DNA of 39,316 nt from Eubacteriales bacterium (lineage in GTDB: Bacteria > Bacillota > Clostridia > Oscillospirales > CAG-272): contig JAZOCY010000037.1 in assembly GCA_045596805.1 (NCBI GenBank), positions 1 to 39,316 of the forward strand, written 5' to 3'. A model generated the notes under the pieces. The model saw only the letters and a list, made by a program, of their open reading frames with translations. It was not told the DNA's origin and ran no database searches. Shown piece after piece: positions 13,419 through 39,125 of the stretch (the stretch's first letter is position 1; each line of letters begins with the position of its first letter). The translations under genes and the position numbers were made by a program.

Positions 13419-13616
13419 ATGAAGAAAACCGATATGCCGCTTGGTCTTATGCACGAATTGACAAAGGACAAAAGAGCTATGCAGAATTACGCCGCTCTTA
13501 GCGAGCAAGAACGGCAGCAAATTCTCATAAGGGCTAAAAAAGCAGAATCAAAAGAAGATATGCATTTGATAGTAATGTCCCTGTCAGATAAAACCAGCGC
13601 GGTAGAATATCAGTGA
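13419..13616 (+). CDS. small hypothetical protein (65 aa)
   Basis: The ATG lies 5 nt after a GGGGAG RBS. The protein is hydrophilic and helical, and no family was recognised. Confidence 0.4.
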   Translation: MKKTDMPLGLMHELTKDKRAMQNYAALSEQERQQILIRAKKAESKEDMHLIVMSLSDKTSAVEYQ

Positions 13617-13693
13617 ATCGATTTTTCTTACGCTTTATTTACTGATAGTAAAGCGTGGTTTGTAAAAAATTAAGAACCTTTAAAAAATGGAGG

Positions 13694-13736
13694 TCGGTAC
13701 GGTATGCCTGTTGATAAGCTGCCGTGCCGATTTTTT
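13694..13736. terminator. bidirectional terminator
   Basis: TCGGTACGG-19 nt-CCGTGCCGA followed by TTTTTT on the plus strand. An A-rich 5' flank gives a U-tract on the minus strand, downstream of the desulfurase gene. Confidence 0.55.
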
Positions 13737-14910: not shown

Positions 14911-14911
14911 A

Positions 14912-15460
14912 TTAGTTAAACCTGAAATTTTCTATAATTTTATACACAGCGTTTAAATTGCTGTCAAACGGAACCTTTCCAAGCTCGTTTTCCTCATTTA
15001 AAGCAGTATAGGTGAAAGTGAACAGATAGACTCCTTTTACAGCAAAGAGCTGTATAAACTGATATTCGTTTCCGTTATAGGTAGCCTTATAGGTATATCT
15101 TGCCGCGTCGGTTTCGCCCAGCTTGGTATTGACGCCGCTTTCGACAATCTCAAAATTATCAAAAATCGAGTTAAACTGTGATACTCGGTTTTCCCAATAT
15201 TCAGCAATAGAGCTTTCCTTCGGTACTTCATAGGTAACGCTTACGTTTGAACGGTCGACTGCCGAAACGTACGCGCTTGTAATTCCCGTAGTCATATCCG
15301 ATACCCAGCCTTCGGGAACGTAGAGAGAATAATATTTGTTGATTTCGGGGTCGGACACCAGCTTCATTCCAACGGGCGTGTCACTCTCGGACTGTGAGCA
15401 ACCGCAGAATATGAAGAGGCAAAGCGAAAGAGCGATAGCGAAAGATATGATTTTTTTCAT
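14912..15460 (-). CDS. lipoprotein, unknown function
   Basis: Signal peptide with lipobox (LFIFCGC). The mature domain is about 160 aa and beta-rich. Confidence 0.6.
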   Translation of the reverse strand: MKKIISFAIALSLCLFIFCGCSQSESDTPVGMKLVSDPEINKYYSLYVPEGWVSDMTTGITSAYVSAVDRSNVSVTYEVPKESSIAEYWENRVSQFNSIFDNFEIVESGVNTKLGETDAARYTYKATYNGNEYQFIQLFAVKGVYLFTFTYTALNEENELGKVPFDSNLNAVYKIIENFRFN

Positions 15461-15470: not shown

Positions 15471-16481
15471 TTAAAGTATTGCCGAAAAATCAGAATTTAA
15501 CAGAGCTTCGGCAAGTATTTGCGCATTTTCTATATCCTTTAAGCTCATAATCTGAGCGCAGGAGTTGGGATTTTGACAGGGAAGCGTAATTCCCGCAACC
15601 ATAGCCCCACTATGGCTTGACTGTACGGCGGCAAGCTCTGAGCTGCCAAAGGAGGAAAGCTCGTTTTGTAAACTTAAGCTTGTCTTTTTAGCAACGTCTC
15701 TTATAAAATCGGTAAGAGTCTCGTTGCATATGAGAGACTTGTCCTTTATTTTTATACCGACGCCCTCGCCGACAGCAAGAGGCATGCCCGTATTATCCTT
15801 GTGAGAGGAAAGAGAAGCGTCAAAGGAAATGGCGACGTCGGGCGATATGGCATACGATGCAGGCTTTATACCTCTGTTGCCCACGTTTTTCTGTACCGAA
15901 AACACAAAATAAATATCGTTTTCGCAGTTAGCTATTTTCTCCGAAGCCGAAATCAAAACGGCGCAGGAAGCGCGTCCGTCAAGGGCTTTCGTGGATATTT
16001 TTTCGTTATAAAGCTCTGTGAAGCTACTGTCAAAAACAAAGGTTTCGCCGAGCGAGACCGCTTTTTCGGCTTCGGCCTTGCTTTTTGCGCCTATATCTAC
16101 GTAAAAGCTGTTGAACGTGGGATTTTTAAGCTCGGCGCTCTCGGTGAGCATTAAGCCCTCTGCGCCGTTTTCAAAGCAAACCTTTCTATAAATAGCGGAA
16201 TAGACGTCAGTGTCGCCCAAAGCTGAAAATCGGATACGTCCGTTTTCCTCTATATGCGTAGTAAGAAATCCGCATTCGTCCATATGAGAGAATAGCATAA
16301 TCCTCTTGCGACAATCAGACGAGCCCTTTTTGTAGGCTATAACGTTTCCGAGACGGTCACGCTTACATTCGTCGAAAAACGGGGATATCTTTGATATTAT
16401 GAAATTTGCTATTCTTTCCTCATATCCCGATACGCCCTGTATGGCGCACAACTCTTTTATCAATTCTATATCCATTTTCAT
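15471..16481 (-). CDS. M42-family peptidase paralog, probably catalytically inactive
   Basis: M42 fold motifs are present (FSHMDECGF, ALDGR). However, the QEEVG motif reads QKNVG, and the C-terminal His motif reads CQNPNS instead of RYxHS. Confidence 0.8.
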   Translation of the reverse strand: MKMDIELIKELCAIQGVSGYEERIANFIISKISPFFDECKRDRLGNVIAYKKGSSDCRKRIMLFSHMDECGFLTTHIEENGRIRFSALGDTDVYSAIYRKVCFENGAEGLMLTESAELKNPTFNSFYVDIGAKSKAEAEKAVSLGETFVFDSSFTELYNEKISTKALDGRASCAVLISASEKIANCENDIYFVFSVQKNVGNRGIKPASYAISPDVAISFDASLSSHKDNTGMPLAVGEGVGIKIKDKSLICNETLTDFIRDVAKKTSLSLQNELSSFGSSELAAVQSSHSGAMVAGITLPCQNPNSCAQIMSLKDIENAQILAEALLNSDFSAIL

Positions 16482-17560
16482 ACCTCTCTTTTTCGCAAAA
16501 GCTCAAAATCGCGTACAATGCGATAAAGAAGCTCTTCCATAGCGTAGTAATCCCGTAGGTCAGAAACACAGGCAGGGCTGTGAAGATATCTTGTAGGGGC
16601 GCTTAAAGCAAGCACGTGACAGCCGTCCGACGCGCGATGAATATGCGAGGCGTCGTTGCCCCCCGAAACATATTCCTTGAGCTGCACAGCAACTTCATTC
16701 TTATAACGCAAACAAAAGTTTACAAAATGCCTGTCATAGACGGTGCTTCTGTCAGCGAGGGAAATTGCCCCGCCACGCCCAAGCTCAGCGACTCTCATAT
16801 GAGACGGAGTACCGTAAATATCGGATACCGCAGTCGTCTCAACTATAACGGAATATTCGGGGGAAAGTCTGGTGGCGACTGTAAGCGCGCCCGACAGTCC
16901 CGTTTCCTCTCTCGTCGTAAAGCAGAAAGTGATATTAAAATTTCTCAATACTCTTTCTTTAGAGAGCCTTTTGATAAGATTTATAAGAACGGCGCAGCCT
17001 AAACGGTCATCAAGCGCCTTGCATTTGACTTTGCTTCCGTTTTCACCGAAAACCACGAAATCCGAGTCAAACACGGCGCAGTCGCCTATATCTACCGTCG
17101 CTTCGGCTTCGGCTTTGCTTTTTGCGCCAACGTCTATATACATCTCTGAGAGTGGAGTTACAGAGTCGCGCTCGTCCTTTTCCTGTAAATGCGTGGGCTT
17201 TACGCTTATTACTCCGCTTATTTTTTTGCTATCGCGCGCAAAAATTGTCAGACGCCTGCCGGGAACTATTTTTTCATTGAGCCCACCTATTTCGTCGAAG
17301 CGCAAAAAGCCGTTTTCATCATAGCCTGTAATCATAAGCCCGACCTCGTCCATATGGGCGCAGAGCATGAGCGTGGGCGCCGTCTCTCTCTGCTTGTCCG
17401 CAGGCAGAAAAGCTACGAGATTCCCGAGCGCGTCCGATGAAATATCGGTTATAAATGGCGATATTTCCTTTTCTATAATCGAGCGAACCTCGTCTTCAAG
17501 CCCCGACGGACCGAAGGCGAGCGAGAGAGCTTTTAAAAGTTCAATTTTTTCTTGCATCAT
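16478..17560 (-). CDS. M42-family metallo-aminopeptidase (canonical motifs)
   Basis: AHMDEVGLMI, ALDDRLGCAVL, TREETGLSGA and PTRYLHSP are all present. The start is probably one of the tandem ATGs at 17560 or 17557, just after GGAGG (the track ORF begins at 17575). Confidence 0.85.
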   Translation of the reverse strand: MMQEKIELLKALSLAFGPSGLEDEVRSIIEKEISPFITDISSDALGNLVAFLPADKQRETAPTLMLCAHMDEVGLMITGYDENGFLRFDEIGGLNEKIVPGRRLTIFARDSKKISGVISVKPTHLQEKDERDSVTPLSEMYIDVGAKSKAEAEATVDIGDCAVFDSDFVVFGENGSKVKCKALDDRLGCAVLINLIKRLSKERVLRNFNITFCFTTREETGLSGALTVATRLSPEYSVIVETTAVSDIYGTPSHMRVAELGRGGAISLADRSTVYDRHFVNFCLRYKNEVAVQLKEYVSGGNDASHIHRASDGCHVLALSAPTRYLHSPACVSDLRDYYAMEELLYRIVRDFELLRKREV

Positions 17561-18602
17561 AAACCTCCGCCGCAATAGCTTCGTCGCATATCAAGACCGA
17601 AAGAAGCTGAGAAAGCGATTTGCAGTCATATAACGAAACACTTTCCGAAAAGGTATGCATTGAGCCGAGAGGAATACCCAAATCGACACAGGGAATACCA
17701 AAATTAGAAAGGCCGAGAATGTTTCCGTTCGTGCCGACGTTGTTCGGCTCTGCTACCGTCTGATACGGCAGATTGCTTCTTTTTGAAAGCTCGATTATCT
17801 TTTTTGTAAATTTACGGCTCGTCACAGCCGAGAGAGAGACCGAATATCCCTCGCCCATCTTCAAGCTCAACGTTTCGTCTATTTTTGGCGCGCGGGCAAA
17901 GTTTACGTCAAGTGAAATCGCAAGATGCGCCTTCACCCTGTCTGCGCCCGTCTGTGCGCCTACAAAGCCGCCGTATTCCTCTCGACATGAGAAGAGCAGA
18001 TAAACGTCGAAGGCGAGCTCTTCTGCCGATACGCCCGAAATTGCGTCTAACGCCGACGCGCAACAGACCTTGTTGTCGAAGCCGTGTCCGCACAGAATAT
18101 TATTCGAAAGCGAAATGCATTTTTCGCAAAAGGAAACAGGAGAGCCTACCGAAACAATATTTTCAAGCGCAGTCTTCGAATATCCCGTGTCAATATAAAG
18201 TTCTTCCGGCTTTTCAAGCTTGTTTTTTGTTTCCTTAGTGAGCAGATGAGGGGGAGTAGAGGTTATTATTCCGAAAATTTCTTGTTTGCCATAGACGGTC
18301 ACCTCGCATCCCTGTAAAACGTGCGCGTCGAGGCCTCCGACAGAGGAGAACTTCAAAAAGCCACCGTCACATAGCTCGCTTACTACGAAGCCTATTTCAT
18401 CAATGTGCGCGTCTATAAGAATTCGCGGGGCATTTTCTTTTTTTGAACGTTTAACGAACAGGTAACTGCCCACCTTGTCGGTTATTGCCTCATCGAATAT
18501 TTTTTCACCGAGTTTGAGAATTTTTTCCTTGTTTCTGTATTCGAAGCCCGATACGGTCATTATAGAGCAAAGCTCTTCAATGTAATTTTTTATATTTTCC
18601 AT
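17541..18602 (-). CDS. M42-family metallo-aminopeptidase
   Basis: AHIDEIGFVV, GFDNKV, SCREEYGGFVGA, ISLDVN and GSMHTFSE are present. Confidence 0.85.
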   Translation of the reverse strand: MENIKNYIEELCSIMTVSGFEYRNKEKILKLGEKIFDEAITDKVGSYLFVKRSKKENAPRILIDAHIDEIGFVVSELCDGGFLKFSSVGGLDAHVLQGCEVTVYGKQEIFGIITSTPPHLLTKETKNKLEKPEELYIDTGYSKTALENIVSVGSPVSFCEKCISLSNNILCGHGFDNKVCCASALDAISGVSAEELAFDVYLLFSCREEYGGFVGAQTGADRVKAHLAISLDVNFARAPKIDETLSLKMGEGYSVSLSAVTSRKFTKKIIELSKRSNLPYQTVAEPNNVGTNGNILGLSNFGIPCVDLGIPLGSMHTFSESVSLYDCKSLSQLLSVLICDEAIAAEVYDARKN

Positions 18603-20129: not shown

Positions 20130-20163
20130 AGAAAAAAACAAAAGACCTTAAAAAAGGTCTTTT
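20130..20163 (-). terminator. terminator downstream of rnpB
   Basis: On the minus strand, AAAAGACC-ttttttaa-GGTCTTTT is followed by a T-rich run. Confidence 0.6.
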
Positions 20164-20540
20164 GGCGACGTAAGCTTATAAGCCGGGTTCTGTGAACACG
20201 TAAGTGAACCGCAATCATCTATCTTCGCTATGCGTCACCGCATAGCTTGGAGAAATCTCCTGCCACCATTCCAAAAACGGCGAGCAGCCGTGGCATAAAG
20301 CCAAAAGAAAGGTGTTGCTTCGGATAGGGTTTACATTTGCACATAGTTACCTATAATGCCGGTGGGCTCTTACCTCGCCTTTGCATCCTTACCGTAAAAA
20401 CGGCGGTTTATTTCTGTTGCACTTTCCCTGAGGTCACCCTCGGCGGACGTTATCCGTTATCCTGCTCTGCGAAGCCCGGACTTTCCTCATAATAATACCT
20501 TTCGGCAACATATTACGCGATTGCGCCGCTTAGTCGCCTG
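20164..20540 (-). ncRNA. rnpB: RNase P RNA (bacterial, probably type A)
   Basis: The reverse complement contains the universally conserved P4 strands GAGGAAAGUCCGGGC and ACAGAACCCGGCUUA. A P1 helix pairs 5' GGCGAC with 3' GUCGCC. Length is about 377 nt. Confidence 0.9.
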
Positions 20541-22512: not shown

Positions 22513-23139
22513 TCAGCTCAATTTAAGCTCTGAATTTTTGATATCCAAAATTTTTCTCATTTGGGAATTAGCGAGTACAAGAGCGGCGACGATGAGCGTG
22601 AGTATAAGCTCGGGAAGCAGATATCCGCCGTTATATAAAAGCGAATAAGCGTACTTGCCCATACCGTCGGGCGCCCACTGTCCCCATATAACGACACCCG
22701 TTACGAAGTGGCAGACAAAGCGCAGGAAAACCGCGAGAGACAGTCCGAGGAATATGCCGAAATGGCGTACCTCTTTAAAATCGCCGTTTTTCTTCTGACG
22801 GAAAAGACGGAAATTCTTGAAAATTCCCGCGAGTCCCAAGACGGTAAACGGAAGCAGGTAGTCGAAGAAAAGACATACAACAACCGTCACCCAGCCTTCA
22901 CAGTAGATGAACACATCACCCTCTATGATAGCCTGTAAAAGCTGGAAAAGTGAATAGACGAACGCCGTGCCGAGCCCCTTAGCCAAGCCGAATTTTACGG
23001 CTATCAAGCATATAGGTAGCATACTAACGAGCGTGACGGAGCCGCCGAGAGGCATACTCCAGAGCTTTATAAAGCTCAAGGCAACCGAGAGCGCCAGCAT
23101 AACGGCGCATTGTGTTAGTGAAATGACAAACCTTTTCAT
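22513..23139 (-). CDS. thiT: thiamine transporter ThiT (ECF S-component / YuaJ family)
   Basis: About 6 TM helices and an N-terminal pattern LSFIKLWSMPLGGSVTLVSMLPICLIAVKFG typical of ThiT. It lies directly downstream of a TPP riboswitch. Confidence 0.8.
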   Translation of the reverse strand: MKRFVISLTQCAVMLALSVALSFIKLWSMPLGGSVTLVSMLPICLIAVKFGLAKGLGTAFVYSLFQLLQAIIEGDVFIYCEGWVTVVVCLFFDYLLPFTVLGLAGIFKNFRLFRQKKNGDFKEVRHFGIFLGLSLAVFLRFVCHFVTGVVIWGQWAPDGMGKYAYSLLYNGGYLLPELILTLIVAALVLANSQMRKILDIKNSELKLS

Positions 23140-28144: not shown

Positions 28145-29398
28145 CTATTTCGAGCCGTCAAGCTCGCCATCTTCTTCGGGCGCAGAGTCCTTCGCGCTTT
28201 CAGCAGACGCAGCCGCAAGAAGCTCGGCTTGCAGGTCATAATCAAGATAGAGCTCCGTGTCTATAGGCAGCTTCTTTTTGGCAAGAAGCCTTGTTGATAA
28301 GGATTTAAGCTCTACCGAGACCGTCGTGTAAAGCGGTATCGATATGACGGCGCCCCATAGACCGAACAGGGTATAAAAGACAATAGACATTACTATAGCG
28401 GCGCCTACGTTAGGTCTCAGCTTTTTCTTAAGCATAGCGGGCTCTATTATAAGATTTTCAAATATCTGGGTTACAAGAATAGTTGAAAGCAAAATGAGGG
28501 TATGGTGTCTTGACGTGATGAAGATAGTCACAACCGTCAGAAGCGTGGAAATTATAGGTCCGAATACGGGAACTATATTCAAGACGAGCATTATAAGGAA
28601 TATAAGCGGATAAAACGGAATATTGAACAGTCTGCACACTAAAAACGTAATAGAGCTTATATAGAGAGAGCAGAGAATTCTCGCCGAGAGAAATTCGGTG
28701 AAGTCGGTATAAAGCCGTTTTATGAAGCGCGCTATATTCCTTTCGGCGCGCGGGCTGAAAACAGAAGCCAACGCTTTTCCGAACACCGAGCTTATATATT
28801 TTCTCGACGCAAGGAAATAGACGGACAGAATAAGACCGACAACGATTTCGACAACCTCGCCTACAATCCTTGTACCTACAGACTGGAGTCGCGATACAAG
28901 CGAGCCCTCGTTTGTAGAAAACAGGTCCTCACTTAAATATTTTGCGACGCTGTCGTAAATATTGAAGAGCAGGGGGGAGTCGGACACGAGAGTTTCTATC
29001 CAATGTCGCGTGTTGTTTATTGAAGAAATAAGAGTCGCGCGAAGCTCGGTCACGGTTGAGAGCATCGGCGGAAGTATCATCGTGACCACCAGAGCGACAA
29101 CGAGGAAAAATACGACGTAAATAGTAACGAGAGAAAGCACCTTCACCAATTTAGGTCTTTCTTTTTTTCGGCAGAAGAGCTTTGTAAAAAGCTTTTCGTT
29201 CGTATGCATAAACGGGAAGAAAAACAGAGCGAAGACGGTGCCGTATATTATCGCGCGGATTTCGTGAATAATACCCTTTATAAACTCAATAACCGTGAAA
29301 ATATTAGACGTGAATAGCAAGAACAGCAAGGAAAACAGTATTACGCCCAAAACGTACGCGGATATAGTCAGATACTTCTGATTTAACTTGTTTTTCAT
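28145..29398 (-). CDS. AI-2E family transporter (PerM/UPF0118)
   Basis: About 8 TM helices with an AI-2E-like pattern (NIVPVFGPIISTL...). The C-terminal tail is acidic. It has a 4-nt overlap with the upstream paralog. Confidence 0.8.
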   Translation of the reverse strand: MKNKLNQKYLTISAYVLGVILFSLLFLLFTSNIFTVIEFIKGIIHEIRAIIYGTVFALFFFPFMHTNEKLFTKLFCRKKERPKLVKVLSLVTIYVVFFLVVALVVTMILPPMLSTVTELRATLISSINNTRHWIETLVSDSPLLFNIYDSVAKYLSEDLFSTNEGSLVSRLQSVGTRIVGEVVEIVVGLILSVYFLASRKYISSVFGKALASVFSPRAERNIARFIKRLYTDFTEFLSARILCSLYISSITFLVCRLFNIPFYPLIFLIMLVLNIVPVFGPIISTLLTVVTIFITSRHHTLILLSTILVTQIFENLIIEPAMLKKKLRPNVGAAIVMSIVFYTLFGLWGAVISIPLYTTVSVELKSLSTRLLAKKKLPIDTELYLDYDLQAELLAAASAESAKDSAPEEDGELDGSK

Positions 29399-30612
29399 TT
29401 ATAATCCTCCTCGTCTTCGTTTTTCGAGTGTTGAGGAACGGCGCGAACTGCATCCGTGAAGGAAAAAACGTCAGAATACGCCGAAAGCTCTGTCGGCATA
29501 TTTTTCTTTTCGAGCCGCGCGTTTATAAGATCCTTAATAAGCACGTAGATGGTTGAGAAAAGCGGAATTCCGAGCACCATACCGAGAAGGCCGAACAGAC
29601 CGCCCATAACCGTGACCGCTATAATTACCCATAAAGCGCTCAGACCAACCGCGTTTCCGAGAATTCTGGGCGCGACAATATTTCCGTCTATCTGCTGAAG
29701 CACTAAAATTATTACTGCGAACCAGATGGCCTTCATCGGTGAAAAGATAAATATGATCATAAAGCTGGGGATTGCGCCGAGGAATGGTCCGAAATAGGGA
29801 ATTACGTTTGTAATGCATACAATAACGCTTACAACCGAATAATACGGAATTTTCAATATCCAGCATATGATGAAGGTTGCTATTCCGAGCAGCACCGAAT
29901 CAAAAATACTGCCGATAAAGTATTTGCCAAAGGTGTTGTTGGCAACGTTCAAGACCCTGCAGATGAAGAAAAGCGCTTTTCTCGGAATAAAGGCTGACGC
30001 GTATTTTTTAGAGCTTGCAATGACCTTTTCCTTTTTTAAGAGTATATAAAACGAAAGAACACAGCCGATGAAGATTTTAGCTATAACGGTAAGCGCCCTT
30101 GCGCCCCAATCGGCAATTTGCGTTCCTATATATTCCGTCAGAGAGTCCGCATATTCATAGAATTTTTTCTCTATATCCTCGACATTGAAGGATTCGAACA
30201 GACTCTCCAGCTTTTCAAGCGTTTTTACTATAAAGTCGGTTATCTGTTGAATGAGAATCTCATAGTTTTCTATAATTTTCGGTATCGTCAAAGAGATTAT
30301 GAGCGCTATGACGGCAAGAAGCGAAATATATGCGAGAGCAATTGAAAGAATTCGCTTTAATTTTGCGCTTACGTGCTTCTCGGTTTTGAAATTAAACAGC
30401 TTCTTTTCGTAAAAGCTCATAATGGGATTGCAGATATAAGAAATAACAAGACCGATGATAATAGGAGAGACAATCGTTGAAATTTTATTGAATATGCTTC
30501 TTACCGTAGGGAAATTTACTCCTATCAGAACAATAGCTATGGTTATGGCAAGAATTGCCGCCGCATACATAGATATGGTCAAGTATTTTTTGTTTTTATC
30601 AATTTTAAGCAT
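29395..30612 (-). CDS. AI-2E family transporter (PerM/UPF0118), paralog
   Basis: NVIPYFGPFLGAIP and QQIDGNIVAPRILG motifs. Start at ATG 30612 after GGGAG (the track ORF extends to 30684). Confidence 0.8.
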   Translation of the reverse strand: MLKIDKNKKYLTISMYAAAILAITIAIVLIGVNFPTVRSIFNKISTIVSPIIIGLVISYICNPIMSFYEKKLFNFKTEKHVSAKLKRILSIALAYISLLAVIALIISLTIPKIIENYEILIQQITDFIVKTLEKLESLFESFNVEDIEKKFYEYADSLTEYIGTQIADWGARALTVIAKIFIGCVLSFYILLKKEKVIASSKKYASAFIPRKALFFICRVLNVANNTFGKYFIGSIFDSVLLGIATFIICWILKIPYYSVVSVIVCITNVIPYFGPFLGAIPSFMIIFIFSPMKAIWFAVIILVLQQIDGNIVAPRILGNAVGLSALWVIIAVTVMGGLFGLLGMVLGIPLFSTIYVLIKDLINARLEKKNMPTELSAYSDVFSFTDAVRAVPQHSKNEDEEDYK

Positions 30613-30844
30613 AGCGTCTCCCTTTTTTTCGTATATGTAAAAAAATCCCCGATAACGTACGGAAAATACAACTCCTCTTTCCAATTATAATACATTGTTG
30701 AAAAGATTTCAATATGATTTTATTAACAATAATAGGAAAAACAAAAAATATTGAGAAAATAATTGCAAGAAAAGGGAAAAAGGTGTATAATAATGAAAAA
30801 AACGCATCGGTTCGACTGCTTAATGGATTATTACGGAGAAATAA

Positions 30845-31717
30845 ATGAAAACATATGAGAAGGCAAATGCAAAAATAAACCTTTTCCTTGACGTAGTGGG
30901 AAAAATGGAAAACGGCTTTCACGAAATTCGCTCGGTTATGCATTCGGTTAATTTAAGCGACGGTATTTCAATCGAGCGCCTTTCTTCGGGCGGGGGCAGA
31001 ATAAGTATATTCGTAAGGGGTAAATATTTTTTACCCTGTAATAATAAAAATCTCGCTTATCGCGCCGCAGAGCTTTTTTTTCGCGAGCTGCGCGAGGGGC
31101 ATTCTTTGCGTATAGGAATACACAAAAAAATTCCCGTGTCGGCGGGACTTGCGGGCGGAAGCAGTGACGCAGCGGCTGTCTTAAGGGCGCTTAACAGAAT
31201 AAATTCCTACCCTTTTACAAGGGAAGCGCTTTGCCATATGGGCGAAGAGCTCGGCTCGGACGTTCCCTATTGCATTTTGGGAAAAACTCAGCTCTGCGAG
31301 GGCAGGGGTGAAAAAATGCAGAAGCTTCCCTTAAAGAAGAAAATGAATTTCGTCGTCGCCGTAGGAGACGAACGCGTCTCAACTGCCGCCGCATACGCGA
31401 AATTAGACGAGCTTTACGGAGATTTCAGAGAGCGAAGCTCGGAATCGAAGCAAAAATACGACAATCTTATCAAGGCGATAAACGAGCAGGACGAGAGAGG
31501 CGTAGCTTCAAATATGTATAATATTTTTGAAAGCGCCGTGTTGCCCATGTGCCCGCAGGCGCAGGCAATCAAGGAAAAAATGCTTGAAAACGGAGCGCTT
31601 GGCGCTATGATGAGCGGAAGCGGACCGTCGGTTTTCGGAATCTTTGAAAGCAAGGAGGCGGCAAAGCGCGCCTCTGCCCTCATAGGCGATAACGCTTTCG
31701 TCGCTACGTCTGTATAA
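30845..31717 (+). CDS. ispE: 4-diphosphocytidyl-2-C-methyl-D-erythritol kinase
   Basis: GHMP kinase motifs KINLFLDV and KKIPVSAGLAGGSSDAAA. Confidence 0.92.
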   Translation: MKTYEKANAKINLFLDVVGKMENGFHEIRSVMHSVNLSDGISIERLSSGGGRISIFVRGKYFLPCNNKNLAYRAAELFFRELREGHSLRIGIHKKIPVSAGLAGGSSDAAAVLRALNRINSYPFTREALCHMGEELGSDVPYCILGKTQLCEGRGEKMQKLPLKKKMNFVVAVGDERVSTAAAYAKLDELYGDFRERSSESKQKYDNLIKAINEQDERGVASNMYNIFESAVLPMCPQAQAIKEKMLENGALGAMMSGSGPSVFGIFESKEAAKRASALIGDNAFVATSV

Positions 31718-31753
31718 TCGCCGCAGCTTCCTTTCTTAATCGGTATAATAAGA

Positions 31754-31782
31754 TTGACAAGCAAGAAGAAATATGATATAAT
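31754..31782 (+). promoter_or_regulatory. perfect consensus extended -10 promoter (TTGACA-17-TGaTATAAT) for the TerB/ATPase/helicase cassette
   Basis: TTGACA at 31754-31759 and TGaTATAAT ending at 31782. An AGGAGG RBS lies about 9 nt before ATG 31814. Confidence 0.6.
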
Positions 31783-31813
31783 TTTATGATACGGAAAAAG
31801 GAGGGGCTTATAT

Positions 31814-33487
31814 ATGGGATTTTTTATCTCTGACGAAGATAAGGACGCTTTTTGGGATTTGTCCGAGCTTGTTCCCAAAAGAAGAAAGCCCGTCTCTTCC
31901 TTTTCAAAAAGAATAGACCTTGCCGAGATAAGCGTTTCTTTCGAAGACTCAATGGAAGAGATGCGAGAAGACGGTGAGAAAAGCCGAGAGCGTGAGCTTT
32001 CGTTTAAACCGATAGAGAAGAAAGAAAATATTCAGAACGTGTGCTTAAGCTATACTCCGTCGGATAACAAATTTATAAGAAAAATAGTAATTTCCGAAGA
32101 AAAAGAGGGATATAATTTTTACGGAAGCTTTAAAAAGGACGCCGAAAAATATTACGCCTCGACGGGAGAGAAAAGTGAATTCGTTCCCTATTTTTCAAAC
32201 GTTCCTCAATACAGTCAATTGACAGATGAGCAGAAGAATTATTATTTCTTCTGGCGCGAGCGTGTAAGAGAGGGCGAATATATAAAGTGCGACTACAGCT
32301 ATTTCTGGCTTTACGTTTACGAGGTTGTAAGCTTAAGCTCGCAAATTGCGCCCGAAGACGGAATAAAATTACTCTGCTCGGTCTGGCGCGCGTATCGGAA
32401 GCAGCTTCCCAACATAGATAAAAATATGACGGCTTGGGTTTGCGATTACTGCCTTATTCACGCCCTGCCCTGTCCTACAGAGGAAATTTCGTCTTTTATC
32501 TGCGAGATAATAGAATTTATGCCCCTAAAGGAATTTTATCTCGCCTCGACAAGCTCGTTTGACGAGATAGACGTCGATTATATTATGGGAGTTGCTTCGG
32601 ATTATAACTGGCATATGAGCAGGATTTTAAATTCGGGCAAAGATTCAGAGCTTTTCCTTTCGCATATGAACGCGTCTTTAAAAGAGCCGTTCAAGCTTTT
32701 ATTCAAAAACGGGGAAGTGTCGCTTTCGACGGATGAAATAAGGAGTATGCGCTATTCGGCGTTTAACCGTTCGCTTTGCGGATATTTCACACGTAAAAGC
32801 ATCTACGTCGAATACCATTCTCTTTCTCACTCGGAAAAAATAAGGAACACGGTAACGCAAACGGTAAAGTATGCGGAAAACAGATTGAGAGCCTTTCTAT
32901 CCGTTAAGAGCAGGCTTTCCGTTCCCACCTTGCAAGGGGAATACAGAGCGGCGATAGACGCGTATTACGACGCTCTGACACGAAAGCGGGACAAAGAAAA
33001 GGAAATAAGCTCGCGCCCCTCTTATGAAAGGCTCTACGACGCGCAGGAAAACAGCCTCTCATTTTCGTATGCTGAAAAAATAGAGGAAAGCTCGTGGGAG
33101 CTTGCCAGACGCCTTGCGCCCGAAGAGGAGGCGTGCGAGGTCTTTTCATTCCAAACGCAAGAGCCTAAGAAAGTCGAAAGCGCCCCTGTATGCAAACAAG
33201 AGCTTACAGAATTAGAGGGCGAAGATGGAGAAAGGACTTCAAAAGAAGGCCCTTACGGACTTTCTCCCTTCCATATGGAATTTATTGGCGCGCTTTTGGA
33301 GAAAAGCTTTGCGCGCGCAAAGCAGGTGGCGAGCGCGGCGCGCAGCACGCCCGAGAGTCTTTCTGAAAAAATTAACGAGAGCTTCTCTGATTTTTTCGGA
33401 GACGTGATTATAGAAATAGGCGAAAACGGATGCGCTATAATTTCAGATTATGAAACAGAGGTTGCAGAATGGCTGAAAGAGAATTGA
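31814..33487 (+). CDS. sngA: TerB-N / TerB-C domain protein (Shango SngA-like)
   Basis: The TerB-N signature is PYFSNVPQYSQLTDEQKNYYFFWRERVREGEYIKCDYSYFWLYVYEV...VWRAYRKQLPNIDKNMTAWVCDY. The C-terminal TerB-C-like segment is LSPFHMEFIGALL...KINESFSDFFGDVIIEIGENGCAIISDY. No TM helix was seen. Confidence 0.75.
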   Translation: MGFFISDEDKDAFWDLSELVPKRRKPVSSFSKRIDLAEISVSFEDSMEEMREDGEKSRERELSFKPIEKKENIQNVCLSYTPSDNKFIRKIVISEEKEGYNFYGSFKKDAEKYYASTGEKSEFVPYFSNVPQYSQLTDEQKNYYFFWRERVREGEYIKCDYSYFWLYVYEVVSLSSQIAPEDGIKLLCSVWRAYRKQLPNIDKNMTAWVCDYCLIHALPCPTEEISSFICEIIEFMPLKEFYLASTSSFDEIDVDYIMGVASDYNWHMSRILNSGKDSELFLSHMNASLKEPFKLLFKNGEVSLSTDEIRSMRYSAFNRSLCGYFTRKSIYVEYHSLSHSEKIRNTVTQTVKYAENRLRAFLSVKSRLSVPTLQGEYRAAIDAYYDALTRKRDKEKEISSRPSYERLYDAQENSLSFSYAEKIEESSWELARRLAPEEEACEVFSFQTQEPKKVESAPVCKQELTELEGEDGERTSKEGPYGLSPFHMEFIGALLEKSFARAKQVASAARSTPESLSEKINESFSDFFGDVIIEIGENGCAIISDYETEVAEWLKEN

Positions 33488-34884
33488 ATTCAAATGAAAT
33501 AAATATCCCGAAAAGAGTATTGAACACTCTTCTCACGTCGCTTTCATCGGGCGTAGTTCCTCGCATAGGGGCGCCCTATATCGCTATAGGCAGGAAAGAG
33601 GAGGTAAACGCGCTTCTCGACAGTCTTGACGCAGTAAAGGACGGAGGCGCCTTTGTCAGATTTCTCATAGGACGCTACGGAAGCGGAAAGAGCTTCCTCA
33701 TTCAGCTTATCAGGGGTTATGCGCTTGATCGAGGCTTTTTGTGCGCCGACGCCGACCTCTCTCCCGAAAGACGTCTTGCGGGAGGAAACAACTGTGGACT
33801 TGCGACCTACAGAGAGCTTATGCGAAATCTTTCCTCTAAGGCGTCTCCTGAGGGAAGCGCGCTTCCCGTAGTTCTTTCGAGGCACTATTCGAGGCTCTGC
33901 GCCTCTCTTGCCGAGAGGGGAATAATGCCCGATAGCGCCGAATTTGAAATTGAGCTTAAGAAAAAAATATACTCGCTTGCAAACAACTTTGAAAGCAGTG
34001 TCGGAGGCTTTGATTTTTCACGCGTTTTAAGTGAATACTATATTGCCTGCTTATATGACGACGCCGAGAAAAAGAGCGCCTGTCTTCGTTGGATGCGAGG
34101 AGAATATTCGACAAAGACCGAAGCCAAAAGCGCGCTCGGCTTTTCTGTCGGTGGAATTATAGACGACGGAAGCTGGTACGATTATATTAAGCTCTGGGCC
34201 CTCTTTGCGTCAGAGCTTGGCTACAGCGGACTTGTAATTTATATCGACGAGTGCGTCAATCTCTTTAAAATTCCTAACCGTATATCGAGGGAAAGCAATT
34301 ATGAAAAAATACTCTCCATTTTCAACGACACTCTTCAGGGCGGGGCGAAAAATCTCGGGGTCATCTTTGGCGGTACGCCTCAATTTTTGGAGGACTCACG
34401 CAGAGGACTGTTCAGCTACGAGGCGTTAAGAAGCCGTCTCTGCGACAGTCGCTTCACTTCAAGCGGATACGTAAATATGAGCGCCCCCGTAATAAGACTG
34501 CGCCGTTTTTCAAACAATGAGTTTTTAGCTCTTATCGCGCGCTTAACAAAGCTGAAGGCAATGCAGGACGGCTCGAAAGAGCTGCTTAGTAGCGATGAAA
34601 TGATAGAATTCCTCAATTTTGTTTTGGATAAAGCAGGCTCAAACGAGCTCGCAACTCCGCGAGAAATTATAAGAGACTATCTCTCGCTTTTGAATATTAT
34701 GCGTGAAAATCCGAGTGTCAGCTTTAAAAGCATACTCGAAAAGGGAGATTTCGGCGAAGCAGCCCTCAAAGACACAGAGGCAGAATTTTATAAGTCGGAG
34801 AGCGAAGCCGATACGCAAAAAAGCATTAAGGTCGGAAGCGACACGCAGAACAGAAAAATAACGTTAGACGATATAGAAATATAA
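33469..34884 (+). CDS. DUF2791 / BrxD-like P-loop ATPase (Shango ATPase component)
   Basis: SSGVVPRIGAPYIAIGRKEEVNALL...FLIGRYGSGKSF (Walker A), DADLSPERRL..TYRELMRNLS, and Walker B LVIYIDEC. It overlaps the upstream gene by 19 nt. Confidence 0.75.
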   Translation: MAERELNSNEINIPKRVLNTLLTSLSSGVVPRIGAPYIAIGRKEEVNALLDSLDAVKDGGAFVRFLIGRYGSGKSFLIQLIRGYALDRGFLCADADLSPERRLAGGNNCGLATYRELMRNLSSKASPEGSALPVVLSRHYSRLCASLAERGIMPDSAEFEIELKKKIYSLANNFESSVGGFDFSRVLSEYYIACLYDDAEKKSACLRWMRGEYSTKTEAKSALGFSVGGIIDDGSWYDYIKLWALFASELGYSGLVIYIDECVNLFKIPNRISRESNYEKILSIFNDTLQGGAKNLGVIFGGTPQFLEDSRRGLFSYEALRSRLCDSRFTSSGYVNMSAPVIRLRRFSNNEFLALIARLTKLKAMQDGSKELLSSDEMIEFLNFVLDKAGSNELATPREIIRDYLSLLNIMRENPSVSFKSILEKGDFGEAALKDTEAEFYKSESEADTQKSIKVGSDTQNRKITLDDIEI

Positions 34885-34925
34885 ACTAAAGTTTACTTTA
34901 TTGCCATTTTTGAAGGGGTGAGGAT

Positions 34926-37154
34926 ATGACTGAGGCAGACAGGATTTTTGAAAAATTTCCGCCTTTTATCCGCGAATACGTCTATAGCCACGCCTGGCGC
35001 TCCTTGCGCGAGGTTCAGATGCAGGCGGCTGAGGTCATATTTGAAAGCGAGGACAATCTCCTGCTTTCTTCTTCAACCGCGTCGGGCAAAACCGAAGCGG
35101 CGCTCTTTCCCATACTTTCCCGCCTTTATGAAAAGCAGGACGGCAAAGACGGAGTATCGGTTCTCTATATCGCCCCTCTTAAGAGCCTTATAAACGACCA
35201 GTTTTACAGAATAGAGGATATACTTGAACATAGTGGCGTGAGCGTTTTTCACTGGCACGGCGACGTAAGCGCACACCATAAAAACAAGTTTTTGAAGAAT
35301 CCGAGCGGAATTCTTCAAATCACGCCCGAATCGCTTGAAAGTATGCTTATGAATCGCTCGAACGATATCCCTCGCCTGTTCGGCGCGCTCGAATATATAA
35401 TAATCGACGAAATTCATACTATGGTAGGCACAGACAGAGGAAATCAGATAATGTGTCTTATAAGCCGTCTCTCACGCTTGACAGGCTACAGTCCGAGAAG
35501 AATAGGCCTGTCGGCTACAGTCGGCGATTTGGAAAAGGCTTGCGAGTGGCTCGGCGCTGGAAGCGAGAGACGAACCGTCGCCCCGAAAACCCCCGTAAGC
35601 AAATTGACCTGGAAGCTCGGCATGGAGCATTTTTACATTCAGGACCCGCGTCTTAACCAGACGGGCAGAGCGCTGCTCGACGAAAACGCCGCAAGTGTAA
35701 ACAAAGGCGCGCAAATTGATGCAGGCTTTGAGTTTTTGTACGATAGCGTCAAGGATAAAAAGGCGCTCGTCTTCTCAAATTCGAGAGAGGAAACAGAAAA
35801 CGTAACTGCAACTCTGCGCCAGATAGCGAAGAACAGAAAAGAGAAGGATATATTCTTAATACATCACGGAAATCTGTCGGCTTCTATTAGAGAGGACGCC
35901 GAGATGAAAATGAAGGACGACGACGTCTCTGCCGTGACCTGCGCGACTGTAACGATGGAGCTTGGCATAGATATAGGAAAGCTCGACAGAGTGGCGCAGC
36001 TTAATTCTCCCTACAGAGTTTCGAGCCTCTTGCAAAGACTCGGACGCTCGGGCAGACGCGAGTCTCCCCCTGAAATGATTATGGTGTTCAGAGAGGAAAA
36101 GCCTTTGCCGAACGCCCCTCTTCCCAATCTCATTCCTTGGGAGCTTTTGCGAGGCATTGCTCTGGTAGAGCTTTACCGAGACGAGAGATTTATAGAGCCG
36201 CCCTCTGAAAAGAAAAAGCCCTTTAGTCTGCTTTTTCATCAGACACTCAGCATTTTAGCTTCGTCGGGCGAGCTCAGCGCGAAGGAATTAGGGGCGAGAG
36301 CTTTATCTCTTCCGCCATTTTCGCATATTGATAAAAACGACTATAAGCAGCTTCTCGTTCATATGATAAATGAGGATTACCTTGAAATCAGCGAGGAGGG
36401 CACAATTATAATAGGACTTGCGGGCGAAAGGCTCATAAACAGCTTTAAGTTTTACGCGGTCTTTCTTGATAGCGAGGATTTTACCGTGCGATGTGAGTCG
36501 GACGAGATAGGCACGATAACCACCCCGCCCCCCGTCGGCGAGCGAGTAGCTCTCGCGGGCAGAGTATGGGAGGTCATAGAGATAGACGTTTCTCACAGGC
36601 TCGTTTTCGTTAAATCTGTCGAAGGAAAGAAGGAAATATCCTGGCCTGGTGACAGCGGAGAGGTGCATACGAGAGTTCTCGAAAAAATGAGAGATGTCCT
36701 TTTCTCCGACAAGGAGTATCCGTATCTTATGCAAAACGCATCGCAAAGGTTAGCGCTCGCGCGCCATACGGCAAGAGCGACGGCTATGGATAAAAGTATG
36801 CTTCTCAGTATAGGCGGAAGCAGCTACTGCCTTTTCCCCTGGCTCGGAACAAGAGCTTTCCGTACTCTTCGAAGATTTTTGAGCTTCAATGCGGCGAAGC
36901 TTGGAATTTTCGACGTAAGAAGCGAAGGCTGCGTCTATATAACCTTTAAGTCAACAAACAAAAGCGCCGACGAGCTTCTGTTTTTTATAAGAACGCTTAT
37001 TGCAAACGAGGGAATAAAAGCAGAGTCTCTTGTAGGTGACTCCGAATATCCCGTTTTTGATAAATACGACGAGCATATCCCCCCCGAGCTTCTTCGGCGC
37101 GCGTACGCCTGTGACAAGCTATGCGCAGAGGAAGTAATTTATCGCTTTGAATAA
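34926..37154 (+). CDS. Lhr/BrxHI-like DExH-box helicase (Shango helicase component)
   Basis: Motif I SSTASGKTEA, motif II IIIDEIHT, motif III LSATVG and motif VI QRLGRSGRR. The C-terminal Lhr-type associated region contains FPWLGTRAFRTL. Confidence 0.85.
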   Translation: MTEADRIFEKFPPFIREYVYSHAWRSLREVQMQAAEVIFESEDNLLLSSSTASGKTEAALFPILSRLYEKQDGKDGVSVLYIAPLKSLINDQFYRIEDILEHSGVSVFHWHGDVSAHHKNKFLKNPSGILQITPESLESMLMNRSNDIPRLFGALEYIIIDEIHTMVGTDRGNQIMCLISRLSRLTGYSPRRIGLSATVGDLEKACEWLGAGSERRTVAPKTPVSKLTWKLGMEHFYIQDPRLNQTGRALLDENAASVNKGAQIDAGFEFLYDSVKDKKALVFSNSREETENVTATLRQIAKNRKEKDIFLIHHGNLSASIREDAEMKMKDDDVSAVTCATVTMELGIDIGKLDRVAQLNSPYRVSSLLQRLGRSGRRESPPEMIMVFREEKPLPNAPLPNLIPWELLRGIALVELYRDERFIEPPSEKKKPFSLLFHQTLSILASSGELSAKELGARALSLPPFSHIDKNDYKQLLVHMINEDYLEISEEGTIIIGLAGERLINSFKFYAVFLDSEDFTVRCESDEIGTITTPPPVGERVALAGRVWEVIEIDVSHRLVFVKSVEGKKEISWPGDSGEVHTRVLEKMRDVLFSDKEYPYLMQNASQRLALARHTARATAMDKSMLLSIGGSSYCLFPWLGTRAFRTLRRFLSFNAAKLGIFDVRSEGCVYITFKSTNKSADELLFFIRTLIANEGIKAESLVGDSEYPVFDKYDEHIPPELLRRAYACDKLCAEEVIYRFE

Positions 37155-37165
37155 AGAGGTGCTTT

Positions 37166-37447
37166 ATGGAAAACAAAACAAAAGAAGTCGAAATGCTTAT
37201 AAAAGCGTTTTCCTCGCTTGAGGGCGAGGAGGAGTGCGAGAATTTTTTGTACGACCTCTGCACCTCACTTGAAATCGAGGAAATGTCACGCAGATTAGTG
37301 GCAGCCGAAATGCTCAGGCGCGGCTGCCCGTACGCCGAGGTCGTTTTAAGGACAGGGCTTTCTACAGCGACCATCAGCCGAGTAAGCAGAAGCCTTAAAA
37401 ACGGAAAGGGCTACGAGAAAATATTATCGAAGTTAGGTGAATTATGA
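37166..37447 (+). CDS. YerC/YecD-family TrpR-like protein
   Basis: FLYDLCTSLEIEEMSRRLVAAEML..G.PYAEVVLRTGLSTATISRVSRSLKNG matches the TrpR-related YerC/YecD family. Confidence 0.8.
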   Translation: MENKTKEVEMLIKAFSSLEGEEECENFLYDLCTSLEIEEMSRRLVAAEMLRRGCPYAEVVLRTGLSTATISRVSRSLKNGKGYEKILSKLGEL

Positions 37448-38202
37448 GTATTTATAGCGCGTTAGCGCCATTTTATGACCATTTTCAGAGCGAGGTAGAC
37501 TACGAAAAATGGGCAGATTTCTTCTGCGATAGCTTTTCCCGTTATTTTGACGGCAGAGTGGAGAGCGTTCTCGATTTAGGCTGCGGCACGGGAAGCATGA
37601 CGCTTTCACTTGCGAAGCGAGGCTTCGATATGATAGGCGTAGATAATTCGGAGGAAATGCTTTCCTTCGCCTGTGAGAACGCGAGAGACGAGGGCTATGC
37701 CGAGAAAATTCTGTATCTCTGTCAGGATATGCGCGAGTTTGAGCTTTACGGAACGGTAGAGGCTGTCGTCTCCTGCCTTGATTGCGTAAATCATCTGAAA
37801 AGCACGGCTGATATAAGAAAATGCTTCTCGCTCGCGCATAACTATCTCGTGCCGAACGGACTTTTCATCTTCGACGTAAATAGTAAATATAAGTTTACAA
37901 ATGTGTATGCTGATAATTCCTTCGTCTTTGAAAACGAGGGCGTTATGTGCGTATGGCAGAATGAATATAACCCGAAAACTCATTTCTGCGATTTCTACAT
38001 CTCGCTTTTTGAAGAAAACGAGGACGGAACATATTCAAGAACAGACGAGTATCAGAGGGAAAGAATGTATCCCGAAAGCACAATAAAAAGACTTCTTGCC
38101 GAATGCTCTTTTGATCTGATAGGCATTTTTGGCGGCCTTGACTTTAAAGCGGCGAGTGATACCGACGAGCGTCTTTATATTGTCGCAAGGGCGAAAAAAT
38201 AA
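37444..38202 (+). CDS. class I SAM-dependent methyltransferase
   Basis: Motif I VLDLGCGTGSMT and post-I IGVDNSEEML. It has a 4-nt overlap with the upstream gene. Confidence 0.8.
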   Translation: MSIYSALAPFYDHFQSEVDYEKWADFFCDSFSRYFDGRVESVLDLGCGTGSMTLSLAKRGFDMIGVDNSEEMLSFACENARDEGYAEKILYLCQDMREFELYGTVEAVVSCLDCVNHLKSTADIRKCFSLAHNYLVPNGLFIFDVNSKYKFTNVYADNSFVFENEGVMCVWQNEYNPKTHFCDFYISLFEENEDGTYSRTDEYQRERMYPESTIKRLLAECSFDLIGIFGGLDFKAASDTDERLYIVARAKK

Positions 38203-38231
38203 GGTTTTGAAATAAAAAAAGGAAAAAAGAA

Positions 38232-39125
38232 ATGGAACAGTCAAAAATTTTCAGAGCAATGACGAGAGACGGAAGCGCGAGAGTCATTGTCATCAATTCG
38301 AGAGATATAGTAAACGAGGCAATCAAGGTTCATAAGACCTCGCCGACAGCCTCGGCGGCGCTCGGCAGACTCCTTTCCGCCGCTTCGATGATAGGAAGCC
38401 TTATGGGAGAGAAGAATAATACCGTGACGTTAGGTATAAATGCAAACGGAGAGCTTGGAAAGCTGATAGCCGTCGCCGACTATTACGGAAACGTAAAGGG
38501 CTACGTAGAAAATCCGTTAGCAAATCCCCCGAAAAAGCCGAACGGAAAGCTCGACGTGGGCAAAGCCGTCGGAGAGGGATACCTGTACGTAATAAGAGAG
38601 GACGGCGTAGGCGCGCCGCATACGGGAACCGTCGAAATTCAAAGCGGAGAGATTGCTGAGGACATCACGAGATATTTTGCTGAAAGCGAGCAAATTCCCA
38701 CCGTCTGCTCACTCGGAGTGTTGGTTGACGTCGACTATACCTGCCTCGCCGCAGGCGGCGTCCTCATTCAGCTACTCCCATTTGCCGACGAAAGCGTAAT
38801 ATCGCTTTTGGAGAGAAATGCGTCAGACCTTGTAAATATATCACGCTATTTCAGAGACGGACTTAGTTGTGAAGAAATAGCGCAGATAGCCCTGCGCGAC
38901 ATACCTTATGACCCCTTTGATGAAATAGAGGTCGACTACCTTTGCGACTGTAAGCGCGAGAGATTTCTTTCTTCAATCCATAAGCTCGGCGAAAAGGAAA
39001 TACGCACAATGCTCGACGAGCAGGAGTCGGAGGGCAAGGTGCGCGAGCTCGAGGTCAAATGCCGCTTCTGCAACAAAAATTACGTCTTCGACGAAAAAAC
39101 GTTACTTTCAAAATTCAAAAAATAA
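38232..39125 (+). CDS. hslO: redox-regulated chaperone Hsp33
   Basis: Hsp33 N-terminal pattern FRAMTRDGSARVIVINSRDIVNEA, plus the C-terminal zinc centre CDCKRE...CRFCNKNY. Confidence 0.92.
   Translation: MEQSKIFRAMTRDGSARVIVINSRDIVNEAIKVHKTSPTASAALGRLLSAASMIGSLMGEKNNTVTLGINANGELGKLIAVADYYGNVKGYVENPLANPPKKPNGKLDVGKAVGEGYLYVIREDGVGAPHTGTVEIQSGEIAEDITRYFAESEQIPTVCSLGVLVDVDYTCLAAGGVLIQLLPFADESVISLLERNASDLVNISRYFRDGLSCEEIAQIALRDIPYDPFDEIEVDYLCDCKRERFLSSIHKLGEKEIRTMLDEQESEGKVRELEVKCRFCNKNYVFDEKTLLSKFKK

Follow-up and report, generated by a model that had tools for sequence, protein, structure and literature searches.

A Shango-type sngABC cassette resident in a housekeeping operon of a Clostridial genome

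Within a 39,316-nucleotide (nt) stretch of DNA from a Eubacteriales bacterium (CAG-272; contig JAZOCY010000037.1 of assembly GCA_045596805.1), referred to here as the window, three adjacent genes had been proposed to form a cassette of the Shango type, consisting of the proteins SngA, SngB and SngC. This raises the question of whether the cassette is a complete member of that anti-phage family and, if so, how it came to stand among housekeeping genes. On the basis of profile matches and gene order it is very probably a complete and intact Shango system (SngABC), of a known kind rather than new, and comparison with related loci showed it to be an old, vertically inherited chromosomal resident of gut/rumen Oscillospiraceae-type Clostridia which is occasionally lost. 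Anantharaman, Iyer and Aravind are reported, as later papers cite them, to have predicted in 2012 that the triad is a membrane-linked DNA-processing system. Shango was reported as anti-phage and named by Millman et al. (2022) and was found independently in Pseudomonas aeruginosa PA14 by Johnson et al. (2023); its mechanism was still being called unclear in late 2025, and what the original prediction said of this literature holds.

Gene content and family assignment of the cassette

The cassette and its predicted expression signals are as follows.

31754-31782, + strand: sigma-A promoter, with −35 TTGACA (31754-31759), a 17-nt spacer, TG (31774-31775) and TATAAT (31777-31782), giving an extended −10 of TGaTATAAT
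31800-31804, + strand: Shine-Dalgarno sequence GGAGG, 9 nt 5' of the sngA ATG, read directly from the sequence
31814-33487, + strand: sngA, open reading frame (ORF) of 557 amino acids (aa)
33469-34884, + strand: sngB, ORF of 471 aa
34926-37154, + strand: sngC, ORF of 742 aa

The genes lie in the order A-B-C with the same orientation, sngA and sngB sharing 19 nt and sngB being separated from sngC by 41 nt, and the ORF list agrees exactly with the arrangement that had been described. The single promoter matches the consensus at 12 of 12 positions (TTGACA-17-TGnTATAAT), as had also been claimed, and is the unique 12/12 site within 31000-38300.

Each protein has a Shango component as its best PADLOC family: SngA at 3e-43 (profile positions 63-527 of 528), SngB at 9e-158 (524 bits) and SngC at 4.6e-240 (797 bits, profile positions 5-713 of 720). 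These three near-full-length top matches, together with the expected Pfam domains and the A-B-C order, place the cassette in Shango and uphold the original assignment. The Pfam profiles which that assignment led one to expect, namely TerB_N, TerB_C, BrxC_BrxD, DEAD and Helicase_C, were all matched with the exception of DEAD_assoc, for which no match was found in SngC. The co-conservation of the three genes was borne out by a survey of homologous loci, in which sngABC were found together and syntenic in every locus long enough to reveal it. A setting within a defence island, hotspot or mobile element, which is typical of Shango while not defining it, was not found at the window locus. Searches of the Sng proteins by Pfam, including sub-fragments at E<=1, and by Foldseek revealed no domain of a nuclease, toxin or DNA methylase, in agreement with the earlier observation that none is evident. 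The motifs quoted at the time are all present in the translations, namely NYYFFWRERVREGEY...SYFWLYVYEV in SngA, GRYGSGKSF and VIYIDEC in SngB, and ASGKT, DEIH, SAT and QRLGRSGRR in SngC.

SngC is, on its sequence and modelled fold, an Lhr-core-type superfamily 2 (SF2) DExH helicase, with the following predicted layout and motifs.

SngC aa 1-400: RecA1 and RecA2 domains (AlphaFold2 (AF2) model)
SngC aa ~433-505: winged helix (AF2 model)
SngC aa ~519-565: five-stranded small beta-barrel (AF2 model)
SngC aa ~580-742: alpha+beta C-terminal domain (AF2 model)
35076-35093, + strand: motif I, TASGKT, aa 51-56
35406-35417, + strand: motif II, DEIH, aa 161-164
36033-36059, + strand: motif VI, QRLGRSGRR, aa 370-378

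Both the Pfam DEAD (2.9e-31) and Helicase_C (2.3e-16) matches exceed the curated cut-offs. In an alignment of 37 SngC sequences, motifs I, II, III (SAT) and VI were found to be invariant or almost so: T51, A52, S53, K55 and T56 of motif I, D161, E162 and H164 of motif II and the whole of motif VI are invariant, with G54 and I163 conserved in at least 90%. The nearest sequences in the PDB (phmmer) are those of mycobacterial Lhr (5v9x and 7lhl, ~1e-26). The AF2 model, built like the others from a shallow alignment, reached a predicted template modelling score (pTM) of 0.80, and its top Foldseek match was the Mycobacterium smegmatis Lhr core with single-stranded DNA (5v9x, E 2.8e-27, query-based template modelling score (TMq) 0.70, 817 columns), followed by MrfA (TMq 0.53), Hel308/Hjm and Brr2. 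The earlier reading of this gene as an Lhr-type helicase is therefore supported by sequence as well as by fold. SngC scores 207 bits against NCBIfam DEXH_lig_assoc (cut-off 850) and 118 against PRK09751 (Lhr; cut-off 1496), and NCBIfam holds no equivalog for SngA, SngB or SngC.

SngB is, judging from its profile matches, a BrxD-like (DUF2791, ORC/Cdc6-type) AAA+ ATPase, with the following catalytic motifs.

33670-33693, + strand: Walker A, GRYGSGKS, aa 68-75, catalytic K74
34243-34251, + strand: Walker B, I259-D260-E261, from an alignment of 31 SngB sequences

The Pfam BrxC_BrxD match (3.4e-139) covers profile positions 1-412 of 414 and both Walker motifs are kept, as the proposed DUF2791/BrxD type would lead one to expect. 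Among the 31 sequences, G71-S72-G73-K74-S75 with F76-L77, G68 and Y70 of Walker A are conserved in at least 90%, as are D260-E261, GGTPQ (301-305), R323 and most of TPREIIRD (396-403), while R69 and R321 are conserved in 60-90%. The PADLOC BrxD model scored far lower than SngB (3.8e-36, 123 bits), and the NCBIfam BrxD score of 124 bits lies under its cut-off of 350. A look-up of the exact SngB sequence returned no record, no SngB homologue was found among 50,697 phage records, and sequence searches of the PDB found no relative of SngB or SngA.

In SngA, the Pfam TerB_N (3.8e-13, 50.1 bits, cut-off 25) and TerB_C (7.6e-9, 36.4 bits, cut-off 26.3) matches both exceed the curated cut-offs, so that the TerB-N signature and TerB-C-like C-terminus attributed to this protein were both recovered. 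Its predicted layout is as follows.

SngA aa 1-32: conserved N-terminal peptide (AF2 model)
SngA aa 33-73: disordered acidic linker (AF2 model)
SngA aa 74-437: folded, mostly helical core including TerB_N (AF2 model)
SngA aa 438-478: second disordered linker (AF2 model)
SngA aa 479-557: acidic winged-helix-like TerB_C (AF2 model and Pfam)
32114-32464, + strand: TerB_N Pfam match, aa 101-217, with invariant aromatic and acidic residues in the alignment
33248-33484, + strand: TerB_C domain, aa 479-557, comprising three helices, a beta-hairpin and a last helix

The SngA model has a predicted local distance difference test (pLDDT) value of 74 and gave no significant fold match in a Foldseek search of the PDB, with TerB_C showing a weak resemblance to LysR-type winged-helix domains (E 0.7-1). 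The conserved residues of the N-terminal peptide are F13, W14, D15, L19, P21 and F30. TerB_C has an isoelectric point (pI) of 4.4, and a domain this acidic is more likely to bind protein than DNA. The accessory TerB_N and TerB_C domains were found alone, the TerB core domain being undetected by Pfam at E<=0.01, and searches of the SngA N-terminus and middle region and of the SngC C-terminus at E<=1 returned only TerB_C and a WH_Lhr match below threshold. No transmembrane helix was predicted in SngA, SngB or SngC. Together with the undetected TerB core, this leaves the "membrane-linked" label formerly attached to the triad without support at this locus; the idea stems from Escherichia coli TerB and does not transfer automatically to SngA.

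Synteny, vertical descent and an empty site

Three genes follow the cassette, of which the last two are its conserved neighbours.

37166-37447, + strand: YerC/YecD-type TrpR-like gene (Pfam Trp_repressor 7.6e-21; NCBIfam yecD_yerC)
37444-38202, + strand: class-I S-adenosylmethionine (SAM) methyltransferase gene, a conserved neighbour and not a component, with no NCBIfam equivalog
38232-39125, + strand: hslO (Hsp33), a conserved neighbour and not a component

The closest relative of the window (L001, ~95% nt identity) is collinear with it through both borders of the cassette, and the cassette stands at the same site there and in L002, whose IspE is 80% identical. More distant homologues, with SngA identities of 33-47%, also retain window neighbours. 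Upstream of these cassettes lie ispE in six cases, recG-mgsA in two and hisIE in three, and downstream the class-I SAM methyltransferase, hslO, often the superoxide dismutase gene (sod), and pfk are found in every sufficiently long one. In total, methyltransferase-hslO adjoin sngC in the window and in 13 related loci belonging to four subclades. The string sngABC-methyltransferase-hslO-pfk is shown by all four of the loci that were picked by SngC similarity and length. It should also be noted that the methyltransferase is tightly coupled to hslO in L011, L013, L019 and L091-L098, with sod and pfk next in most.

Four further loci were picked via Hsp33, independently of Shango, and three of these four, all from one lineage, carry the triad before methyltransferase-hslO. 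The fourth (L098) is without it, and comparison of its positions 7165-7217 with window positions 31717-37444 revealed a clean empty site, where just ~36 nt separate ispE from methyltransferase-hslO and neither the promoter nor sngABC nor the TrpR-like gene has left any remnant. In L014, a genus-level relative of L098 (82-87% nt identity in ffh-ssb), the triad follows ispE, and loss of the cassette in L098 is the simplest reading. On this reading the Shango system is dispensable. The empty site and the conserved promoter also define the borders of the cassette. A second candidate empty site, in L003 (ispE 62% identical), was set aside as uninformative, its entire downstream region being rearranged.

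Across 13 loci, the pairwise identities of the three Sng proteins rise and fall with those of Hsp33 and of the methyltransferase (Pearson correlation of the matrices 0.87-0.92, with a Mantel p<=0.0005), and the same four subclades emerge from all of them. Synonymous divergence (dS) from L001 is 0.20-0.22 for the sng genes, 0.14-0.25 for the flanking housekeeping genes and 0.09 for the short yerC-like gene; from L002 it is ~1.0-1.7 for sng and 0.7-1.8 for the flanks. Shared synteny, the Mantel correlation, equal dS and the collinearity with L001 together demonstrate vertical inheritance. The ratio of nonsynonymous to synonymous divergence (dN/dS) is 0.06 for sngC and 0.08 for sngB, comparable to IspE and Hsp33 and indicative of strong purifying selection, whereas sngA is the fastest-evolving of the three (0.12-0.22), with the excess in its two linkers. 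The most diverged stretch relative to L001 is window 32877-33300 (83-88% nt identity), which corresponds to sngA codons ~355-495 and the second linker. Codons ~91-270 of sngA have an unusually low dS (~0.03) relative to L001 and may mark a recombination tract.

The promoter is conserved along with the genes. All 13 syntenic relatives have, ahead of sngA, a version matching at 11-12 of 12 positions, with a 17-nt spacer and nearly always the TG. The same consensus promoter stands before sngA in most of the Clostridia-type loci whose flanks differ, and just 1.4% of random 270-nt stretches from the same loci have a comparable promoter. As it is missing from the empty site of L098, the promoter belongs to the cassette. 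No intrinsic terminator was predicted on the + strand from sngA to hslO except two weak in-gene matches (33852-33867 in sngB and 37513-37527 in the methyltransferase gene). Expression of sngABC is presumably constitutive from this consensus sigma-A promoter, and the cassette is probably co-transcribed with the downstream housekeeping genes including hslO. The TrpR-like gene, whose start lies 11 nt past the end of sngC and whose last 4 nt are shared with the methyltransferase gene, is probably part of the same transcript and lies outside Shango proper; it is restricted to the window, L001 and L002, with sngC leading directly to the methyltransferase in the other syntenic loci. The methyltransferase was considered as a fourth, modification component and rejected, being a generic class-I enzyme with no match to a DNA-methylase family; in other Clostridia-type loci the triad stands without it, and in the triad-less L098 it is kept with hslO.

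Beyond this lineage the wider Shango family is clearly mobile. Homologues of SngB and SngC occur on ~700 plasmids, mostly conjugative plasmids of Klebsiella and Salmonella; on a Clostridium estertheticum plasmid (L090) a relaxase gene and IS110 flank the copy, the copy on an E. coli IncY plasmid is surrounded by insertion sequence (IS) elements and an integrase, and E. coli chromosomal copies are found in tRNA-inserted islands. Other Clostridia-type triads (SngB 52-59% identical to the window copy) stand at unrelated sites, which are also housekeeping. The neighbours there, named from reading the sequences, we take to be dacB/ribF, ychF, adhE and a sugar isomerase gene. Among 113 ORFs flanking the triads of relatives, ~15 matched PADLOC families, mostly generic ones. 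When clustered at 50%, the SngA family comprises 2128 representatives at E<=1e-3 and, with the threshold tightened to E<=1e-30, 382.

A number of variants were also seen in this wider set. In L090 an 848-aa ATP-binding-cassette-domain protein (12614-15160) begins 17 nt past sngC and could be an extra component of a variant. The distant metagenome locus L063 (10001-16100) has sngA-sngB twice, the two pairs being inverted, and no sngC was detected in the 20-kb stretch. In L066 and L077 genes for a PBP-like protein and a WG-repeat protein lie between sngB and sngC; the genes intervening at this position in distant metagenome loci (PBP-like, WG-repeat, xylanase) were rejected as components, being ordinary. 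A TatD-family DNase gene is convergent just downstream of sngC in L066, L070 and L076.

Proposed mechanism and alternative explanations

The best explanation overall, in which moderate confidence is held, is that of an intact Shango system, long resident at this site, which acts through a motor. As the cassette contains no nuclease or toxin, interference would come from the motor itself. Lhr translocates 3'-5' on single-stranded DNA and prefers RNA:DNA hybrids. By analogy SngC may be a 3'-5' single-stranded DNA translocase or helicase, possibly favouring RNA:DNA hybrids, and SngB may be an ATP-dependent switch or loader for SngC, as has been proposed for BrxD and BrxHI. The disordered linkers, the conserved N-terminal peptide and the acidic TerB_C point to an adaptor role for SngA, which could serve as a sensor or scaffold, with the N-terminal peptide for docking; its gene is translationally coupled to sngB. 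SngA would then license loading once invader DNA, or replication and transcription intermediates such as 3' tails and RNA:DNA hybrids, appear, and the motor would strip proteins from invader replication intermediates, unwind them or pass the substrate to host nucleases. In this exact wording the scheme of motor, loader and sensor is tentative and less likely right than not.

Several points weigh against the favoured explanation. The helicase polarity, its substrate and the loader role of SngB would all be borrowed, from Lhr and from what has been proposed for BrxD on bioinformatic grounds, and with no structural relative of the SngA core in the PDB the sensor role is a guess. Anti-phage activity has been shown only for homologues from E. 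coli and P. aeruginosa, and the published protection is modest (10-100-fold). For a defence system the setting is unusual: no island, integrase, tRNA or flanking repeat was found, co-transcription of the cassette with hslO is probable, and the sng dN/dS values (window against L001 and L002) gave no sign of diversifying selection. In addition, the loci compared are all contigs from metagenomes or metagenome-assembled genomes (MAGs), their taxonomy is coarse, the sample is small, and the Hsp33-picked set leans on one lineage.

The alternative which survives best is that the triad serves this clade chiefly in housekeeping, namely genome maintenance, and acts on RNA:DNA hybrids, gaps or stalled forks, possibly under oxidative stress, with an Lhr-type helicase, an AAA+ loader and an adaptor being expressed together with Hsp33 and, in many relatives, superoxide dismutase. 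Deep vertical inheritance and co-divergence with housekeeping neighbours would fit it, as would the conservation of SngB and SngC, which between subclades is no less than that of Hsp33 (62-69%, the range of SngC, against 57-67%), the conserved promoter heading an operon that runs into methyltransferase-hslO-(sod)-pfk, the flanks free of defence genes, the recG-mgsA pair upstream in one subclade, and the DNA-repair role of Lhr and MrfA, the nearest solved relatives. However, homologous triads confer phage resistance, the wider family occurs on conjugative plasmids and genomic islands, other Clostridia-type triads lie at unrelated sites, the methyltransferase-hslO pair also occurs without the triad, and the clean absence in L098, whose relative L014 has the cassette, marks it as dispensable. 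A primarily housekeeping role is considered possible, if unlikely.

It is also conceivable, and on balance improbable, that the cassette is a Shango system acting by abortive infection, in which a triggered SngB/SngC motor would act on host DNA or burn ATP and so arrest the infected cell. The lack of a dedicated nuclease for selective destruction of phage DNA is compatible with this, and a strong constitutive promoter implies proteins that must be kept inactive until triggered; on the other hand, no toxin-like domain is present and the sequence does not separate such an outcome from direct interference. The last alternative, a remnant or satellite of type-2 BREX (Pgl), finds some footing in the BrxD match of SngB (3.8e-36), the BrxHI match of SngC (3e-132, 440 bits) and the domain name BrxC_BrxD, but is effectively refuted by Sng models that are far ahead (524 against 123 bits for SngB, 797 against 440 for SngC), by a sub-cut-off NCBIfam BrxD score (124 against 350 bits), by the absence of PglZ, PglX, PglW and BrxC among window ORFs of at least 150 aa and ORFs flanking the sampled triads, and by the TerB_N/TerB_C partner gene in every locus.

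With Shango thus retained as the favoured identity, the departure from expectation is its residence, which on the comparative sequence data is that of a system long inherited vertically in a housekeeping operon with no mobile island. The locus leaves the definition of Shango unchanged and offers a compact, effector-less and soluble example with clear catalytic and adaptor elements. The comparison set indicates that a "defence" system can last by vertical descent and purifying selection in a housekeeping operon, which bears on the question of a DNA-repair origin, or a double role in repair, of helicase/AAA+ defence modules, Shango and BrxD-BrxHI among them. What the present analysis adds is the evidence for vertical residency, the conserved promoter, the empty site and a structural picture of the Lhr-core/BrxD/TerB_N-C set. 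It may be speculated, with little expectation of being right, that the Clostridial sngABC is a fixed, constitutive genome-maintenance or "core innate immunity" module which has headed the methyltransferase-hslO-pfk operon since before several Oscillospirales genera diverged, the mobile, plasmid- and island-borne proteobacterial Shango being an offshoot recruited from a housekeeping Lhr-loader machine of this sort or, in reverse, a defence system having been domesticated to a core function.

Window context and comparison with known systems

The remainder of the window encodes housekeeping functions, including PNPase, a MiaB-like protein, PgsA, RlmH, three M42 peptidases, a Mur ligase, Ffh, SSB, two AI-2E transporters, IspE, Hsp33, RNase P RNA and a thiamine pyrophosphate (TPP) riboswitch. 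No tRNA, integrase or defence island was found in the window, a search for direct or inverted repeats around the cassette gave nothing meaningful, and the guanine+cytosine (GC) content shows no step at its borders. The other PADLOC matches among the 28 window ORFs are generic, namely a cysteine desulfurase (DndA/SspA) and one mad2. The description of the cassette as the only conflict-system-like locus in a core-gene window stands as far as these generic matches and the housekeeping neighbours go; a recently inserted conflict island it is not.

The following features were also recorded.

779-2791, + strand: co-oriented genes for a DUF5685 protein, a DnaJ-domain protein (211 aa) and a 173-aa protein without a family match
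13735-14910, − strand: class-V aminotransferase/cysteine desulfurase gene (PADLOC DndA/SspA, ~1e-103 to 1e-105)
15471-18602, − strand: three tandem M42 aminopeptidase paralogues
20162-20536, − strand: RNase P RNA, class A, 231 bits
23210-23316, − strand: TPP riboswitch, upstream of the thiamine transporter gene 22513-23139
28145-30684, − strand: two tandem AI-2E-family transporter paralogues, the pair being kept in L001, L002, L014 and L098

With no other Dnd/Ssp genes nearby, the gene at 13735-14910 is almost certainly that of a housekeeping enzyme, and it is a possible false positive for automated defence finders.

Among known systems, the tellurite-resistance (Ter) systems can be set apart at once, as no TerB core was detected and no ter genes are present in the window. 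Bunzi BnzA and Dionysus DinB share with SngA the "TerB" label and a proposed TerB surveillance role; these systems pair TerB with transmembrane or pore-forming proteins, whereas the Sng proteins have no transmembrane helix and the effector would be a helicase.

The mycobacterial Lhr core (5v9x) and Bacillus subtilis MrfA resemble SngC in their DExH motifs, winged helix and domain 4 and in a full-length structural match. They differ in sequence (~20% identity), and SngC ends at residue 742 without the long C-terminal extension of Lhr. Lhr and MrfA serve DNA repair and have neither a BrxD-like ATPase nor a TerB_N protein as partner. An MPE nuclease partner was not found either, no nuclease gene adjoining sngC.

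Closer in composition is the BrxD-BrxHI dyad of type-2 BREX, which combines a stand-alone ORC/Cdc6-type ATPase with a helicase, each homologous to its Sng counterpart; BrxHI has the winged helix, small beta-barrel and Lhr-CTD-like alpha+beta domain of SngC in the same order. SngC, BrxHI, DruE and DpdJ form one defence-associated helicase clade, and BrxD and BrxHI have been described as a tightly linked dyad in which BrxD is proposed to be a helicase loader or activator (PMC12839542). In contrast to type-2 BREX, PglX, PglZ, PglW and BrxC are absent here and the partner is a TerB_N/C protein.

The closest counterparts are the Shango systems of E. coli and P. aeruginosa PA14, which have the same three components in the same order and likewise no nuclease. 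No structure of a Sng protein is present in the PDB. SngC is ~30% and SngB ~40% identical to the proteobacterial plasmid copies and 46% to the Clostridium plasmid copy, and SngA is 557 aa long here compared with 769 aa on the E. coli IncY plasmid. The main difference lies in the setting: proteobacterial Shango is found in defence hotspots, tRNA islands or plasmids beside IS elements and integrases, whereas the cassette described here belongs to the chromosome, where it has been passed on vertically as an operon surrounded by core genes, with a conserved consensus promoter and reading on into hslO.

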